Source: Okamejei kenojei
Lineage: Eukaryota
DNA: 64,000 nucleotides
Reading direction: 5' to 3'
Assembly: GCA_035221665.1 (NCBI GenBank)
Contig: CM069167.1
Span: 12,214,001-12,278,000, forward strand
This document shows positions 26,330 through 36,466 of the stretch, piece by piece (position 1 is the stretch's first letter; every line of letters begins with the position of its first letter). The position numbers and the translations under genes were made by a program. The notes below the pieces were generated by a model. It did not search any database. It saw nothing but the letters and a program-made list of their open reading frames with translations, and had not been told where the DNA came from.

Positions 26330-27040
26330 ATCCAATAGTTGCTGAATGGACAAGAACTTCAAGTTCTGAAGTAGAAATATCACCAACAACTTGTCCACGA
26401 CCAAACACATTGACACTACGGCCAAGAAAGCTCACCAAAGCCTCTACTTCCTCAGAAAACGTAGCAAGTTCAGCACATCCACATCTGTCACCAACCTCTA
26501 AGGATGCACCACATAAAAGCATTTCCATGGGTGTATCACAGCTTGGTTTGGCAACAGCTCTACCGAAGACAGAAGGACATTTCAGAGAGTGGTGGATGTA
26601 GCCCAGTCCATCACACAGAGCAGTCTCCCGTCCATCAACATTTTACACTGCCATGGAAAAGCAGCCAAAGTAAAGACCATATTTTTTCAGGTCATTCCCT
26701 CTTTTCTATCCCATTTGGCAGAAGATAAGCTTGAAAAGCAGAATAAAAAAGGTTCCAAATTCAGGAATAGCCTCTTCCTTATCCGACTGTGGATGGCCCT
26801 GCCATATGCCAGGGTGAAGTCCAAATCTTCCAACCTACCTCATTGCAGACCTTGCATTTTTTCTTCAAAACTGTATTTTCTCCATTACTATAACGCTGTA
26901 ACACTATATTCTGCACTCTCGTATTTTTACTTTGTTTACCTGTTGTACTTGTGTATGGCTTGTTTCTACTCATGTATTGTGTGATTTCTGGATAGTACAC
27001 AAACACAGCTCTTCATTGTATATTGCATATATGACAATAA
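26330..27040 (+). mobile_element. Degenerate Rex/Babar-like LINE 3' portion
   Basis: Similar to 52150-52820 (ctctacttcc.cagaa, gcccagtccatcac, atgacaataaa). Confidence 0.6.
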
Positions 27041-27075
27041 ACCAATACGTACTGGCAAAGGAGTTTAGCACTCAC

Positions 27076-27269
27076 CTTCTTCTCATGGTTGGGAATAATG
27101 CAACGAACAAAATTAGGGTTGGTATTCCTTAGTGTGGCCATCAGTTTGGAAAGCTGCTCCTTGTAAAGTTGGCTGACTGTACGGAACATGCCCCTTTTGG
27201 TCTTGAACGTACCAGGTAGTACTGCATGGGTCAGGTCTACAACTTGATCCAATCCAACAATGCGGTCCA
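27076..27269 (-). CDS. MYH9: Exon 16 (194 nt) DRIVGLDQV...[14 protein letters not shown]...[13 protein letters not shown]
   Basis: tag|TGGAC...AAG|gtgagt. Confidence 0.97.
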
Positions 27270-27577
27270 CTAAGAAAGGAATTGTTGCAAGGTGGTTAAC
27301 TACGATACAGGTACGAAAAAACTAAAGAGTGTCAGGAGGTCGATTAAACTAGTTGAGACTCTGCAAAGAATTTCAACAAGCAGCATTAAAATATAAAAGA
27401 CACAAGGATCTTGAGTAACCTACACAGGTGATATTTCAAAGCCTTTGGAATTTCTCTTGAATTAAATTGAGTGAAGACAAAAACAAACTCAAAGATATAT
27501 CAAGGTGTTTTACAACCAATTAAGTACCTTTGAACCGTAGTTACTGTGGTAACATGGGAGATGCAGCAGCCAACTTA

Positions 27578-28185
27578 AGGCCCTGTGCCGCTTACGTGTC
27601 CTTGGCACGCAAATTACGCAACCTTGTCATCGCGTTGAGGTGCACGGGTATCGCGCGGCACTCTGGGATTTTGTACCGAACTAAATCTTCGCACGCCACC
27701 GGCCTGTCGCGTAACTGACGGCCAAAGTGGGACAGGCCCAAGACCCTGGCGCGACGCAACGTCACCTCCAACAGCAGCAGAAGCAGGGAAACGATCGTTG
27801 AATTCAGCCTGGGGCTCACGGCCGTTGCGGATCTGGATCCACTTCTACTCCCAGAGCGGGGCCAAGAAAATTTAAGATAGACACAAAATGCAGGAGTAAC
27901 TCAGCTGGACCGGCAGCATCTCTGGATAGAAGGAATGGATGACGTTTCGGGTCAAGACCCATCTTTCAGACTGAAGAGTCTCGACCCGAAACATCATCCA
28001 TTCCTTCCCTCCAGAGTTACTGCCGGTCCCACTGAGTTACTCCTGCATTTTGTGTCCATCTTCAAATGACGTCACGCGTTCCAGACGGCTGTGCGGGCGC
28101 ATGATGTCGCACGGGACCTTCGCGCCTCAACGCGATGGCGAGGTTGCGTAATTAGCGTGCCAAGGACACATGTGGGACAGGGGCT
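27578..28185. mobile_element. PIF/Harbinger-like MITE carrying an internal Penelope-derived palindrome (27870-28067)
   Basis: About 70-bp imperfect TIRs (aggccctgt... / ...acaggggct); TTA duplicated on both sides. Confidence 0.8.
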
Positions 28186-28592
28186 TTACACAAAACTCCA
28201 AAAAACAGTACCATGATAATGATTAATTACACTCTGCTATTTGAAAAGTATTGTTGATTGAGGAATGAATTTCCAAAGTTGATTAAGACACTCCCCTTCT
28301 TTAAAAATGATTTACGAAGGGGAAATCATGCTTAACTAATCTTCTGGAATTTTTTGAGGATGTAACTAGGACAATGGACAAAGGAGGGCCAGTGGAGACC
28401 AAAACTGCACACAATACTCCAGGTGTGGTCCCACCAGGGCCCTGTACAACTGCAGAAGGACCTCTTTACTCTTATTCTCAAAGCCTCTTGTTATGAAGGC
28501 CAACCAGCCATTAGCTTTCTTTACTCCGCAAATATATCATGCACATTTACCGAGTACTACTAACAGCTCAGAACAAGGTAAGATGAAATGAG

Positions 28593-28799
28593 GGTGGACA
28601 CAAAATGCTGGAGTAACTCAGCGGGACAGGCAGCATCTCTGGAGAGAAGGAATGGGTGACGTTTTGTGTCGAGGCCCTTCTTCAGACTGAAAACATCACC
28701 CATTCCTTCTCTCCAGAGATGCTGCCTGTCCTGCTGAGTTACTCCAGCATTGTGTCTACCTTATATTTAAACTAGCATCTGCAGTTCTTTCCTACACCC
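28593..28799. mobile_element. Short palindromic Penelope-derived element
   Basis: Inverted arms; 13-bp TSD aagatgaaatgag (28580-28592 / 28800-28812). Confidence 0.85.
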
Positions 28800-29361
28800 A
28801 AGATGAAATGAGAGTTTAGTTTAAATAGAAGTCAGCACCAATTTTAAATAGTGAGTATTAAACCATCAAATGGCTAAATGAGTAAATGAAAATTCTCTGC
28901 AGCAGGCAAAAGCATTTTGACTGATAATGCTGCTGCTATATATCCATAAAAACTAAAAGGTGCAATTAAAATAATTAGTTTTAACACCTATGTAGGATAA
29001 ACAAATTACACTTCAGCTTTAAACTTCAGCTGTAATTTCTATGCAGTGCTGGATAAACTCTAGACTGAACATGAACATCAAACAATTTAACTTTGTAACC
29101 GCAGGTTCGTTTGATAAACAGACTATGGTCCACCCAAGGAATCTTTATCAGTGCAGCTACTGTAATGATAAAATACATTACAGTGAGAAATTAAAGGATA
29201 AAGGAGATATGCAATTGTTCTCTCACAGCTTTTCTTTAAATTGATTGTCGCTACTAACAGATATAACTGCACTAAAAGCAAATCTCACCCACTACAATCA
29301 AACTAATCCACTCTGCAATATGCATTATAATTTTTTTTAAATCCTTCTGTTATTCTTGTTA

Positions 29362-29782
29362 CTACTCTGTGGATTGTCACCTTGTCGTGGTGGCGAAGTT
29401 TGTGTGGACCTGAGAGCGATGCCGTCTGGAGCCATGCTCCTGGTAGGGCCACCCATGGATGTACGGTCGAGGGGGAGGTCTCTGACAAAGAGCAATCCAA
29501 CCAAGACCTCAACGGTGGAACAGGCGGAGGATGATGGCGGACGTTAGTGGAGTGTCATAACGGCTGGGAAGGCGGATGAAGGCTGCAGCAGAAAAGGGTC
29601 TCCGGTCGTCTTGGACTCCATGCCACTGGACCCTGACCAGATCTGTCAAGGACCGTGGGGTGGCTGTCTGTGCACCAGTTTCCCCACCTTAAACAAAGTC
29701 ACGCACAGGCGTCCTCCACATAGGGAACAGCACCCTGGAGACACCCATGGTCATCCATGACCGAAGGGGGCCTAAGAAGAAC
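29362..29782 (+). mobile_element. Short non-autonomous retroelement with an RTE-like 5' end
   Basis: 8-bp TSD tcttgtta; 5' caccttgtcgtggtg motif resembling RTE/BovB 5'UTRs as recalled; aag-repeat tail. Confidence 0.7.
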
Positions 29783-31213
29783 TCTTGTTAACTGCAGTTT
29801 CATCAGTTATCTGCTTCTTATTTATTCTTTTTCTTTTATATTTTCTACTTAAATTATATTGTTTAATCTTTAAGTGGTTTAAACTGTTTAACATTCATAA
29901 CCACTCACAATAATGTTTATTTACCCTTTTTTTTATTTGAAAAGACATTAGGTGTCCTCAATCCCCTCTTAGAAAAGGTCCATTCCACCCCCACCCCCCA
30001 CAAAGTCTGCTCACTGCACAAACTTTTCATCCATTCCTTGCAGGTAGAATCTTATGCGCAGAGGCCTTTGGCCTATCATGCCTGTAGTTGATTGTTAACA
30101 CTGGGCCTTGACATTCCAGCCACCTTTTGGAGATAAAATTTCAGAGTCCAACAGATCAGTTAAAAAAAACGTCCTTGCCTCCCTTTAAAATCATTGACAA
30201 AAAGTTAGGATTTCTGGTTACTGAACTCATTAATTTAAAACTTTCCAACATATTTTTCTGCAAACCAAAACCTAAACTAAAAGCTACCACTACAGGTAGC
30301 AGCCTGGTAAGCAACCTCTTTACTCAGGTGCGAGTAATGTCAGACGTTCACCAGGTGTGATAGCCAGATTTATTCATTATTTTCCAACAACATCCTAATC
30401 AATTAAAGTTTTAGTACAATCTCTACTTTTAAGTGTTATTATTCTTATGACTATAAATCTAAATAAGTTATATGTATACTTTTAAGTTACCTTTTCAATA
30501 TGGCATGCTATTTTGAGGATATTTATAAGGACACCAAATTCTTTCTGCTCATTAATGCTTTGAAGTATAATTTTCTATTATTGCAATCAAAGGAGTGGAT
30601 AGAATTGAGTTTACAAAAAGTGGTCCAAGGTGAAAAAAAGACAGAAGAGGAGATCTAAACAAGACAATACACTTCTGAGAGGAACTGATAACACTACTAC
30701 TTCTCAGCTATACAAATAGTAATTAACCAAGAACCTTTGGAGATGATGTCATCATTCTAATACACAACCATTATCTACGTTCTGGGAACTTCCATTACAA
30801 ACTTCTATTGGTTTGTTCCCTACAAACATCTGAAGAGATAATAGAAGAGAACAGCTCAGTAACACACCCCTCGGCCCATGATATATGTGCCCAACATAAA
30901 GCCAATTTGAAGTAATATCCAAGATTGACATAAAAAGCTGGAGTAAGTCAACGGGCCAGAAGCATCTCTGTAGAAAAGGAATAGGTGTGGTAGCACCTTA
31001 TGCCTGCATGTGATGCATCTCTCTATTCCCTGCAACTGGTCTAATGCTTAGATAGTCTCCTGACTAAGCTTGGAATGTTAGATTTCTGCTCAACTTTAAA
31101 TCACTAAGAGGCTAAGGGGATCAGAGGGTATTACAGTTGGATGATCAGCCATGATCATATTGAATGGCGGTGCAGGCTCGAAGGGCTGAATGGCCTACTC
31201 CTGCATAATTTCT

Positions 31214-31244
<31 letters not shown>

Positions 31245-31469
31245 TCACAGAATATCAGTTTCATCTTTTGTGGTTTCAGATGGGGTGGAGAACGGATGTT
31301 TAAAAAATGTCTATCAGACAGTAAAACGGGAGGGGTGAAAACAAATCATATTTAAATCATAAAAATTACGTCTGAAGTATTTTCTCATTAAGTTAAACTG
31401 ACTCGGTTTGGCAGCTATAAGGCAGACAAATGCTATGTAGGAGAGGGAAAACAGATTTAAAACCTCCAC

Positions 31470-31762
31470 TGCCTTGTGGGCATATTCAGTCATGGAAAAG
31501 GCTCCAGGAGTAATCCTCAAGAAAATCCGGTCGGAGTCCCTAAAGCCGTTCGTCGTTGTCTACAACCTCGCTCTGGCAGCTCCTGCGACAGCGCTGGTGT
31601 CCAAACTATAACGGCCCTGCTGTTCCTTTGGATCGATCAGCGACGTGGTGAGGGGGGACGTGCTGCATGGGCAACAGCCTGTCCTCCATATGACTTGCAT
31701 CCTCCATCCGACCAGGATGCATCACCCATGGTCAGTCATGACCGAGAGGGGCCTACTATACT
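31470..31762 (+). mobile_element. SINE-like element sharing its 3' end with 29362-29782
   Basis: cacccatggtca..catgaccga..ggggccta at both 3' ends; GC-rich island in AT-rich intron. Confidence 0.55.
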
Positions 31763-33245
31763 ATGTATGGAAAATGGAAAAAAATTTAGAAACTAAAGAA
31801 ATGTTTCCTTTTAAGTCAAAATGTACCATCCATGTTATTTTACCAGAAATCTTCAACTGGTCCATTATATTAGGAAAACTTGATGGAAAAAGGAAAATGG
31901 GTTTAAAGGGAATGATTTTCCATTTTCATCTACCCTCCATAACGTCCCACCTACCTCTGAAAACAACAATTTAAAAATAAAAATACTAGTTCAGCATCTC
32001 TTCTGGTCCTATCAAAATTGTACCTGCAGGTAACTTAAGCTTTAAGCTCTCAGAGAGCATTGTCCAGCTTAATAGCCACAGTACATTGAATTTCAAAGCT
32101 GTTTTAATTGTGCACATAGTAATAAAGCAAATTTTAAAGGAGTTTAAAATTCAAAAATACATCCAGCACAGAAGGTGCCTGGATCGGCAGGAACATTTGC
32201 AGTGCACTTCTCCTACAAAATTTCTGAGAGACTTAAATTATAATGACTTATTCTAATTTAAGTTCACCAGAAGTATTACAGGTAAAAAAGATAGTTTTAA
32301 AATGTTAGTATTAATTATATGAATCTGAAACATGGCATGCTCTTGGAAACCCAGTTCATGCATCGATCTCTAAATTAAGAGGAAACACAACTGTGACACG
32401 TAAATTCTACATTCTTAATGATCAATTGAAATCTTCATTTCATAAAAATAACTGTGGAAGACACTAAAGTGTGTTTCAGGTGATCTGTCAATGAAGGGAA
32501 AGCGTTTAATGCAGGAAAGTTGTGCCAAGGTCAGCCAGGATCCTACTGAAGGACAAAAGAGGAAGGGGGAAGGCGGGGACAAATGCCTGTTCCCACTATT
32601 TTTCTGCTTTAGTTCTCAATCAAAGGTGCAAGTATAGTAGACAGATAGAAAGCTCCATTTTTTTTTTTAAACAGGCAGGGTCCAGAAATTTCAGAAGCAG
32701 AGGATGACGGTGCTTATCTCAGACTGTTTGCATGACCTGCCAGTCCATTCTAGACAAGCCACTTAATGCCATTCCTCCATACTTCTTAGCATAGGAGTCA
32801 CACATAGCATGATAATGTGGAAGAAAGGAGTAAAACTAAAGACCAATGTGGAAAGCCAGAATATAAACTATAATCATAGCCCTTAATTGTCTTGGAGAAA
32901 CTGCCAGGACAAGGGACACTGCAGTGTGCATATCTTAATTTAGGTCCAACAATAGTTATATTTATGAAATAATTTCATTATTGAAAAAAAAACGTACTAG
33001 ATTAGATCAATATTGAAAATTAATTTAATTTCTACTTTTTCCACACAAGTGCATTTTGCTTACGTTGGTGGAACAGATTTCACCACTGCAACACAAGATG
33101 AGGCATTGTTGAAATAGATGAGTTGCATTTAACCTACAGCAGAAGGGAAAATAGAAGGGAAAAAAGCAGGAATGGAGGAGAATGATGAACATTCAAAGCA
33201 GGCAATTCTCAGAAGCAACCAGATCATAGTCTTCTCTCGTGTCAC

Positions 33246-33306
33246 CTGGTTCGATATGTAGAATAGGAAAGCGTGCATAGAAATATGCGAGCTGAAAGCC
33301 TTTTAT
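33246..33306 (-). CDS. Candidate loop-2 cassette exon part B (61 nt) IKGFQLAYFYARFPILHIEP, B2/C2-insert-like
   Basis: ctcag|ATAAAAGGC...GAACCAG|gtgaca; ungapped similarity to recalled MYH10 B2 and MYH14 C2 inserts; lies in the equivalent intron. Confidence 0.6.
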
Positions 33307-34181
33307 CTGAGCAACAAACTGAGACATCGTTAAAAATAAGAATTCAACCCTCAAAGAAAGTAATAACTGCAAGATACACATCTAGTCTCTTTACTAGAAG
33401 CTTCTAAATCCTTCCTGAATCAATGCCAGAATTATCAAAACATGTATCATATCCGCAAAGGTATGAAACAAAACTCAAGTTAACTGGGCATGTAATATTT
33501 GAAAAAATGAGAATGAAAAGGCACTGTTTCAATATAATATAAATCAAGGTTAAATCAGTTTCGATCTCCCTCGAATTAGGAGCACTTGCGATGGATTAAC
33601 AGAAATCATACTGATCCAAATTCCTGGGTGTGAACATCTCAGATTACCTGCACTGAGCGCAGTACATAGGTGTAACAATGAGGATGATGTGCCAGCTCCT
33701 CTAAGTTATTAAAGGTTTAAAGAGAATCTGTCCGTCACCGAATAATCTAAGCAACTTCTACAGATGACCTGAACTACCTTGACTGGTTGTACCACAGCAT
33801 GTTGCAGCAATGCCAACACACAGGAATGCAAAAGGCCTACAAAGTGTTCGTCTCAGCCGAGTCCATCACGAGCACAACCTTTCCACCATTGGAACAAGAC
33901 GATGCCTCAAGAAGATGGCATCTATCAAAGAGGAAGCCTGCCATCTAAGCTTATGCCCTGCTCTTGTTGCAACAGTAGGTTCAAAAGCCTGAAATCCAAC
34001 ACCAACAGGTTCTGAATTGATCTGGGCAACCCCAAACCTACCTCAAAAACAGACTACTGAACTAGCTCTTGCACTATCATAGACTTGTTTTTAATTGTGT
34101 TGTGCACTCGATTTTTTTGCAGACTTTCTCTTTTCACTGTCTGGTAGAATTTTTGTATAATCTATATATAATTTATGCATA

Positions 34182-34434
34182 GGGTACACAAAAGGCTGGA
34201 GAAACTCAGCGGGTGCAGCAGCATCTAAGGAGCGAAGGAGATAGGCAACGTTTCGGGTCAAGACCCTTCTTCAGACTGGTCAGGGATCAGGGAAGTGAGA
34301 GATATAGACGGTGATGTGGAGAGACAAAGAACAATGAATGAAAGATATGCAAAAAAATATCGATGATAAAGGGAACAAGCCATTGTAAGCTGTTTGTAGT
34401 GTGAAAATGAGAAGCTAGTGCGACTAGGGAGGGG

Positions 34435-34502
<68 letters not shown>

Positions 34503-35140
34503 ATGCCAGGGCCCGAGGGCTGAGGGGGAGGTGGGAAGGGGAGGAGACAGCAAGGGTTAACAGAATTGAGAAAATTCAATGTTCCAAGCTTGAACATTGA
34601 ATTTTCTCAATTCTGTTATCAGCACTTCAACTCCCCCTCCCATTCCGTATCCGACCTCTCGGTCCTGGGCCTCCTCGACGGCCAGAGTGAGCAACACCGC
34701 ACGTTGGAGGAACAGCACCTCATATTCTGCTTGGGGAGTCTGCATCCTCTGGGCTTGAGCATTGAATTTTCTCAATTCTGTTAACCCTTGCTGTATCCTC
34801 CCCTTCCCACCTCTCCCTCAGCCCTCGGGCCCTGGCATCCCCTCTCTCTATCCACACCCTAGTCGAACTAGCTTCTCATTTTCGCACTACAAACAGCTTA
34901 CAATGGCTTGTTCCCTTTATCATCGATACTTTTTTGCATATCTTTCATTCATTGTTCTTTGTCTCTCCACATCACCATCTATATCTCTTGTTTCCCTGAT
35001 CGCTGACCAGTCTGAAGAAGGATCTCGACCCGAAACGTCGCCCATCTCCTTCGCTCCTTAGATGCTGCTGCACCCGCTGAGTTTCTCCAGCCTTTTGTGT
35101 ACCCTCGATTCTCCAGCATCTGCAGTTCCTTCTTTAACAC
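34182..35140. mobile_element. Penelope-like element 3' end with inverted terminal duplication (about 350-400 bp arms)
   Basis: GIY-YIG-ORF C-terminal peptide HFNSPSHS..LSVLGL...LEEQHLIFCLGSL; 15-bp TSD tataatttatgcata (34167-34181 / 35141-35155). Confidence 0.9.
34435..34498. repeat. (GA)n microsatellite expanded in one arm only
   Basis: Direct reading; the opposite arm has only a short ctctctct. Confidence 0.95.
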
Positions 35141-35742
35141 TATAATTTATGCATAATTTGCTTTTGTGTGTTGGCCGAGTATGTGCGGTGATACTGCTGC
35201 AAGCAAGATTTCATTGTTCCTGTTTCTCACCGCACTTCTGCATATGACAACAAACATGGAGTTAACTGAAATGATTGGTTGCATCTTCAGGCGTAATGCT
35301 CAGCAGACCGGGGATTCCCCGAGGGGGAAATGAGATATCAAAAAAATGTTTTCTTTTTTAAAACACTCATGAAATAGTATAATCCAGGTCTGTGAACAGA
35401 TTATAGTTCTTTGATTCTCAGAAGATAATCAATCAGGGAGCTGGCAGTGTAAATCTAGCAACTGTCATGGAAAACAATAATATGCCTTAAAATACCATCT
35501 TGCCAGGAGTTATGTTTTTCTATTAGTATTGATTTGAATTAAATTCTAGGATAAATTTCAAAAGATACCATTTAAAAACTAGCAAACCAGAGAAACCAAA
35601 TTAGAGAGAATATATAGCCTGCATTATGATGCTAGATAATGGCCCATCTTGCATTCTGATATCCTACCCTACTTAGCTGAACATTGTACCCTACCTTTCA
35701 AAGATTATCTGAAATATTTAATGCAGATGTCCAATTGCTTAC

Positions 35743-35792
35743 GAAATACTCCTCAGGAATAGATTGCCTAAAGTAAATTTCCATTTCCTCAT
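35743..35792 (-). CDS. Candidate loop-2 cassette exon part A (50 nt) DEEMEIYFRQSIPEEYF
   Basis: tacag|ATGAG...TATTTC|gtaagc; phase 1-0, open frame; complements the 61-nt candidate exon. Confidence 0.35.
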
Positions 35793-36115
35793 CTGTACAA
35801 GCGAAACTCATGCTAGGCACAGAGGAGAGAATTAGTTTGTTCATCGGAAGAAGAACACAAGTCAGCGTCTTCAAGCTCCAGTATGATACTTTTGCATTCA
35901 GGAGCTTGCCCCTACCTGCTAGCACCCTGCAAACCTAGTTATCAGTATACTGAGAGAATTTCAAGATCTTGTGAATAGAAACACTGAAATATGCAAGTGC
36001 TTGATAGTGCCATCAAGCTGAGGCTAGGAAACGCGGGAAGCAGCTGTGTGCCTTGGAAAACAAATTACTGGAGTCACAAAGAGATTAAAAGACTTGATTT
36101 AAAAATGTTACGTAC

Positions 36116-36230
36116 CATCTCTCCAAAGATCAGCTATAAATTTATCGGAAGACTGGTGCAACAATGAAGCAATGTTATCATTTAGTGGGTCCATATTCTT
36201 CATTAGCCATTCAGTAGCTTTGTAATCCAC
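36116..36230 (-). CDS. MYH9: Exon 15 (115 nt) [38 protein letters not shown]
   Basis: cag|GTG...GATG|gtacgt. Confidence 0.97.
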
Positions 36231-36466
36231 CTGCATTGCAAATAAAAGACACCTTGTCTAAATATACATATGTAATATTGAGATCAACTATTAAAAATTG
36301 ATATTTGTTATTTAAAACTACCAAGTCCCATTCACATGTCTGCCGTCCAGATTACAAGTTCATTCATTTTATACAAGAGCACAATAAGCAAAGCCAAGGT
36401 GAAAACAGGTCCGCAAAATTGTGACTGGATTTCCTTACGCAATAGTAACACTAATAGATTAACCTA

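Follow-up and report, generated by a model that had tools for sequence, protein, structure and literature searches.

An ortholog of the MYH9 loop-2 exon A2 without its acceptor AG in skate myh9: a probable decaying remnant

We found that intron 15 of a myosin heavy chain gene in the skate Okamejei kenojei contains, at 33308-33246 on the minus strand, an exon that is, by its position, peptide, donor hexamer, and acceptor context, the ortholog of the known single 63-nt A2 exon of MYH9, which is optional and, in mammals, brain-specific. All coordinates refer to the window, that is, the whole 64,000-nt stretch of DNA analyzed. The acceptor AG of this exon has been lost by base substitution in all lineages sampled, and the exon is probably a decaying A2 remnant that is likely skipped. 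The A2 exon class is already known and is annotated in the catshark RefSeq, so the effect of this result is modest; what is new is an apparent loss of A2 in skates, together with the depth of A2 conservation.

Host gene and intron

The window contains, on its minus strand, the greater part of a non-muscle myosin heavy chain gene. Its spliced model, which is stop-free over 1,452 residues, was 96.7%, 96.6%, 94.8%, and 88.1% identical to the myosin-9 proteins of Leucoraja, Amblyraja, Rhinoraja, and catshark, respectively, compared with 79.5% for human IIA2 and 75.1% for skate myosin-10; by protein identity, therefore, the host is skate myh9. The best matches of exon 16 were skate, ray, and shark myosin-9 proteins. 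The first-pass annotation had placed an intron of about 8.8 kb between exons 15 and 16, and we confirmed it at 8,846 nt, from the end of exon 15 at 36116 (phase 1) to the start of exon 16 at 27269. The exon under study and its neighbors are as follows.

36116..36230, minus strand: myh9 exon 15, 115 nt, ending in phase 1 at ATG/gtacgt, from spliced alignment to Leucoraja myosin-9
33246..33308, minus strand: 63-nt A2-exon ortholog (remnant), with codons 2-21 at 33306-33247, from peptide identity and a hidden Markov model (HMM)
27076..27269, minus strand: myh9 exon 16, 194 nt, from spliced alignment; frameshifted forms terminate at 27115-27113

High-copy repeats with very high read depth (approximately 27600-29800, 31100-31750, and 33900-35200) fill a large part of intron 15. 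The A2 remnant and a 50-nt stretch further upstream, once proposed as its partner, both lie in unique DNA; a repeat origin was considered for each and rejected, as each is single copy in the genome. When reads of runs X1, X2, X3, and X5 were placed on 27000-36400, exon 16 was left without cover and the 15 joints listed (with 1,115 more beyond the listing) were repeat-derived, which is the behavior of low-coverage DNA.

Identity of the hidden exon

The 20-aa peptide encoded at 33306-33247 (minus strand) and the CCAG/gtgac donor that follows it are present as the first-pass annotation described them. The peptide was identical to the catshark RefSeq loop-2 insert at 16/20 residues, to amniote A2 at 12-13/20, and to the 8 distinct A2 inserts at 12-16/20, versus 6-10/20 for nine distinct 21-aa ray-finned fish B2 inserts. 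On these values B2 was ruled out as the closest homolog, and with myh9 as the host gene the exon belongs to neither the MYH10 B2 nor the MYH14 C2 cassette. The earlier proposal of homology to loop-2 inserts was thus right in that the exon is a relative or relic of an ancestral insert exon, but its closest counterpart is MYH9 A2 and not MYH10 B2. Consistent with this assignment, an HMM of A2 inserts matched the window exon with E=2.1e-9 (the next best of 11,609 open stretches in 264 kb had E=0.44), and a B2 profile gave no match to it at E<=10.

The insert length is uniform: from catshark to human, 84 of the 84 retrieved proteins with a loop-2 insert longer than 3 aa carried exactly 21 aa (8 distinct sequences), although most of this set was gathered by a search with the catshark insert, so that other insert lengths were less likely to surface. 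Among the 51 cartilaginous-fish myosin-9 proteins listed, in which one cluster is represented by 15 of its 19 members, a loop-2 insert was found in at least two, both from catshark and both of 21 aa, and none of the skate proteins listed had one. An annotated loop-2 isoform was present in only 1 of the 21 named cartilaginous-fish species among the proteins listed, and the missing annotated isoform in skates is therefore weak evidence for loss. A search of cluster representatives without a profile returned two matches. One (P0376) was an open frame reading through an A2 exon of amniote type, flanked on both sides by residues as in the window (VA..EPGD); the other, an unrelated repeat protein, was discarded, and this search returned no further cartilaginous-fish A2 copies.

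According to the accessible text of Das et al. (2023, PMC10480317), A2 is a 63-nt, 21-aa MYH9 exon whose inclusion in the mouse is approximately 15% in brain and 5% in muscle; the insert abolishes actin gliding and lowers ATPase, the A2-bearing NM IIA2 motor having no gliding activity, and the exon is called conserved among mammals. The accessible parts of Mallick et al. (2026, PMC13158602) describe A2 inclusion as dependent on a weak GTGACT donor and on RbFox and present an A2 alignment spanning 10 species; the supplement gives tgcag/ag as the mouse acceptor context, with GTGACT as the donor. The skate exon shares with A2 the gene, the exon 15/16 junction, the reading frame, the weak GTGAC donor, and the tgc..ag acceptor context, but differs in that the acceptor AG is absent and two otherwise invariant residues are altered. 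In the catshark (Scyliorhinus canicula) myosin-9-like isoforms X1/X2 (XP_038639471.1 and XP_038639472.1), by comparison, a single in-frame 21-aa insert is annotated and the invariant Arg7 and Leu19 are kept. MYH10 B2 occupies the same junction and also has 21 aa with a related N-terminal half, but as a paralog it is clearly more distant from the skate exon than A2; MYH14 C2 lies at the same junction of another paralog and, in the accessible text of PMC10480317, has 33 aa in human. We counted 54 UGCAUG motifs in the window (51 expected), none of them on the gene strand within approximately 880 nt of the exon; the mouse study (PMC13158602, accessible parts) found none either, and the absence is therefore uninformative. 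A literature search, with most subscription journals outside its reach, found nothing on the state of A2 in cartilaginous fish or on the evolution of myh9/myh10/myh14 in this group.

Loss of the acceptor AG

The sites around the exon that bear on its splicing are as follows.

33329..33334, minus strand: branch-point-like TTTAAC, identified by eye and with a putative role, approximately 21 nt upstream of the lost acceptor
33319..33320, minus strand: AG of a weak CAG acceptor for a 73-nt frameshifting exon, 3.0 bits
33309..33310, minus strand: position of the ancestral acceptor AG, which is TC in the window and X2 and GG in X7 and X10
33307..33308, minus strand: AG of a cryptic CAG acceptor for a 61-nt frameshifting exon, 5.4 bits, GAG in X7 and X10
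33300..33301, minus strand: AG of a weak AAG acceptor for a 54-nt in-frame exon (first base 33299), 3.3 bits, context aaag/GC
33240..33245, minus strand: donor GTGACA, which is GTGACT in X7, the hexamer of the weak mouse A2 donor

At the position where mouse has tgcag/ag, the window reads tgcTC/ag. Four read runs were placed on 33150-33450, three of which covered the exon (X2, X7, and X10; X5 gave no cover). The independent run X2 (depth 2.5) has the same TC without a gap, and X7 (depth 83) and X10 (depth 4.9), which come from two other organisms, have GG. None of the three covering runs has an indel near 33310-33309, and therefore the AG was lost by substitution and not through an assembly error. 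The suspicion raised earlier, that an AG dinucleotide is missing from the assembly near 33308, is largely refuted, as all three runs lack an indel and none has AG. An ordinary 63-nt A2 exon with cag/AG in the true genome would be the simplest route to an intact exon, but with TC found independently in X2 and GG in two other organisms, one of them at depth 83, we give it almost no credence.

Because the AG is absent (TC or GG), the 63-nt exon, which would run from phase 1 to phase 1, cannot be canonically defined, and we class it as an orthologous remnant instead of a working A2 exon; the weak GTGAC donor of the A2 cassette is present. In-frame inclusion through a non-canonical acceptor appears very unlikely, whether that acceptor is the mutated dinucleotide (63-nt exon) or a TG upstream of it (66- or 69-nt exon). 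With the TG at 33313-33312 the 66-nt frame is open, and this TG shows no difference in the three runs; rare examples are known of TG acceptors paired in tandem with AG. Against this, the dinucleotide varies by lineage (TC, GG), the TG of the 69-nt form is altered in X7, such acceptors are very rare in general, and the exon shows signs of drift.

Signs of drift or constraint

Among the relatives, each of the four differences within the exon was non-synonymous (two in X2, one in X7, and one in X10), although the contig depth was 2.5 for the two in X2 and 4.9 for the one in X10, and these three may be errors. The likelihood ratio of neutral over selected evolution ranged from 5 to 1550 depending on the assumed omega and kappa, and from 2 to 39 when X7 and X10 only were used. 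In addition, A2 columns 7 (Arg7) and 19 (Leu19), which are invariant in 8/8 distinct A2 inserts, are altered in the window, and column 8 (Ala8) is altered in X7. Conversely, variable sites numbered 2/63 in the exon versus 13/177 in the flanks, a difference that is not significant (Fisher p=0.20), and neither stops nor indels occur in the exon across the four sequences (window, X2, X7, and X10). The 40 nt upstream of the exon hold 5 variable sites and the other flanks 4/72 and 4/65, so variation is no lower upstream. As a control, the myh9 loop-1 cassette at 48945-48925 (minus strand) has clean splice sites and seven identical residues, the window peptide being the same as in 5/5 isoform pairs from skates, sawfish, and sharks.

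Remaining splice sites and possible fates of the exon

To score splice sites we used a simple weight matrix, with 90 introns of the myh9, myh10, and myh11-like genes of this genome as the training set; true acceptors have a median of 7.2 bits. With the AG restored, the ancestral 63-nt site would reach 7.7 bits and outscore 59% of true acceptors. The sites that remain are weaker. The 61-nt site falls from its window score to −1.9 and −1.7 bits in X7 and X10, where it is GAG. For the 54-nt site, 7% of true acceptors score as low as in the window or lower; X7 and X10 have 1.1 and 0.7 bits, and the overall range of 0.7-3.4 bits corresponds to the lowest 3-8% of true acceptors. Its AG is kept in the window and in all three covering runs. 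The 73-nt site scores 2.4-3.0 bits across the sequences, with its AG kept in 3/3 covering runs, and the 46-nt site scores 0.3 bits. Since the 61-nt and 54-nt scores vary among the window, X7, and X10, the predicted splicing outcome thus differs between close relatives. The branch-like TTTAAC shows no difference in the three covering runs. A difference at 33303 in X2 makes another in-frame acceptor (TAG, 57 nt, 4.2 bits); at depth 2.5, it may be an error.

The first-pass annotation named 46, 61, and 73 nt as the forms given by the three nearest AG acceptors and held that the exon alone must shift the frame. A fourth AG (first base 33299) was overlooked: it gives the 54-nt form, which keeps the frame and has no stop. 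A frameshift is thus not obligatory, although the statement is correct for the 61- and 73-nt forms. The 46-, 61-, and 73-nt forms reach a stop 154 nt into exon 16, 37 nt before its end, and 20 later junctions follow in the window; a premature stop of this kind, with further exon junctions well downstream, is what a poison exon would have.

We favor a decaying A2 remnant because no strong substitute acceptor is common to the relatives, and because all four in-exon differences are non-synonymous and invariant columns are altered. Under this account, the remnant would be ignored and exon 15 spliced directly to exon 16; the AG would have been lost before the split of these skate-like lineages, and the exon would then have drifted unconstrained. 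Leaky use of the 61-nt CAG may still occur as splicing noise, producing a frameshift and a stop in exon 16 and leading to likely removal by nonsense-mediated decay (NMD). The account is weakened by the smaller number of variable sites in the exon than in its flanks and the lack of stops and indels, and also because the GTGAC donor and the branch-like motif are kept and 16/20 residues match catshark.

Rescue of the exon is unlikely. In this case, the AAG nine bases downstream would have taken over as the acceptor of a 54-nt exon encoding a shortened, 18-aa insert, which would still silence the motor in neural tissue. The open frame, the AG retained in the window and the three covering runs, and the kept donor fit this account, as does the deficit of substitutions in the exon, non-significant as it is. 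Of the 90 true acceptors taken from the three myosin genes, 8 are AAG, and the upstream site that would compete with the 54-nt one reads GAG, a poor acceptor, in X7 and X10. However, the 54-nt site is weak in all sequences; CAG acceptors are preferred over AAG, and the CAG located 7 nt upstream, stronger at 5.4 bits in the window and X2, should be chosen there and shift the frame. The in-exon differences are all non-synonymous, the upstream tract is variable, and no 18-aa insert occurs among the 51 cartilaginous-fish myosin-9 proteins listed.

A poison exon is improbable too, with a somewhat smaller chance: the cassette would have been co-opted as a 61- or 73-nt frameshifting exon that lowers neuronal myh9 mRNA via NMD. 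The 61-nt CAG is the best-scoring acceptor in the window, the three frameshifting forms stop in exon 16 with many junctions downstream, and the AG of the 73-nt form is kept in three runs. An exon whose peptide had ceased to matter would be expected to show non-synonymous drift, and a poison isoform would be absent from annotated proteins. Regulatory poison exons, however, usually have strongly conserved flanks. Here the flanks vary at ordinary intron rates, the 61-nt acceptor is not conserved (two relatives have GAG), and the weak 73-nt site lies only approximately 11 nt from the putative branch point.

It is also conceivable, if doubtful, that the A2 exon was repurposed in skates after acceptor loss in both ways, as an AAG-spliced 18-aa insert in some lineages and, through the new CAG, as an NMD off-switch in the present one. 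If true, neural down-tuning of myosin IIA would have been kept by a different route, in animals apparently without B2.

The 50-nt stretch and the two-exon cassette

35743..35792, minus strand: 50-nt partner stretch, acceptor 7.4 bits and donor 2.4 bits, a likely chance pseudo-exon outside the feature

The 50-nt stretch at 35792-35743 does have the splice-like ends described for it, and joined to the 61- or 73-nt form it gives an open frame. On this basis, an obligate pair (35792-35743 plus 33306-33246) had been proposed to encode a 37-aa loop-2 insert. The acceptor of the stretch is good, no other candidate reaches its thresholds in the 2.7-kb interval (five others appear at relaxed thresholds), and one related contig aligns across it over 167 nt, ungapped and with 2 differences. 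Nevertheless, pseudo-exons that restore the frame equally well or better occurred in 12 of 30 same-length control blocks drawn from other introns of the myosin genes (24 in 171 kb, or 0.38 per 2.7 kb), and only 2% of true donors score as low as its donor. The stretch is therefore likely a chance match, a possibility that the first-pass annotation had itself raised. The A2 profile has no match in it, and the 84 retrieved inserts are all 21 aa long. With a partner at chance level and the CAG acceptor to which it must be joined being GAG in two relatives (X7 and X10), so that this internal acceptor is not conserved, the two-exon cassette is most improbable.

Evolutionary meaning

The catshark and skate sequences date the A2 exon, weak donor included, to the jawed-vertebrate ancestor, roughly 450 million years ago. 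Skates appear to be a natural case of A2 loss, and no B2-like exon was found in myh10 of this genome either; skates may therefore serve as a comparative test of whether neurons need motor-dead loop-2 isoforms of non-muscle myosin II. As a decaying remnant, the skate exon would clearly illustrate early decay in an ancient cassette exon. If the 54-nt or the poison form is used, it would instead exemplify an exon outliving the loss of its acceptor.

Paralogs and other features of the gene

A genome search with exon 16 (E<=1e-8) found three genes, myh9, myh10, and myh11-like; a fourth paralog resembling myh14 was not found in this one search, which is a weak negative. Intron 15 of myh10 in this skate (C23, 3,438 nt) contains no B2-like exon according to the A2 and B2 profiles and a listing of in-frame candidates, and 0 of the 25 cartilaginous-fish myosin-10 proteins listed have a loop-2 insert. 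B2 may have been lost in the skate lineage, or it may be younger than the split from bony fish. Given these two results and the recovery of three genes only, skates may lack loop-2-inserted myosin II altogether.

The loop-1 cassette at 48945-48925 is an intact 21-nt exon encoding 7 aa, and in sharks and skates it separates RefSeq isoform X1 from X2; in mouse MYH9, no loop-1 splicing was detected according to the accessible text of PMC10480317. Two introns of myh9 are GC-AG introns, with donors after 23108 (AAG/gcaagt) and 5753 (CAG/gcaagt) on the minus strand. The intron at 45382-43178 (minus strand) has the donor GTATCCT, which we take to resemble the minor-spliceosome (U12-type) consensus and which also occurs in the same intron of the C23 and C22 paralogs.
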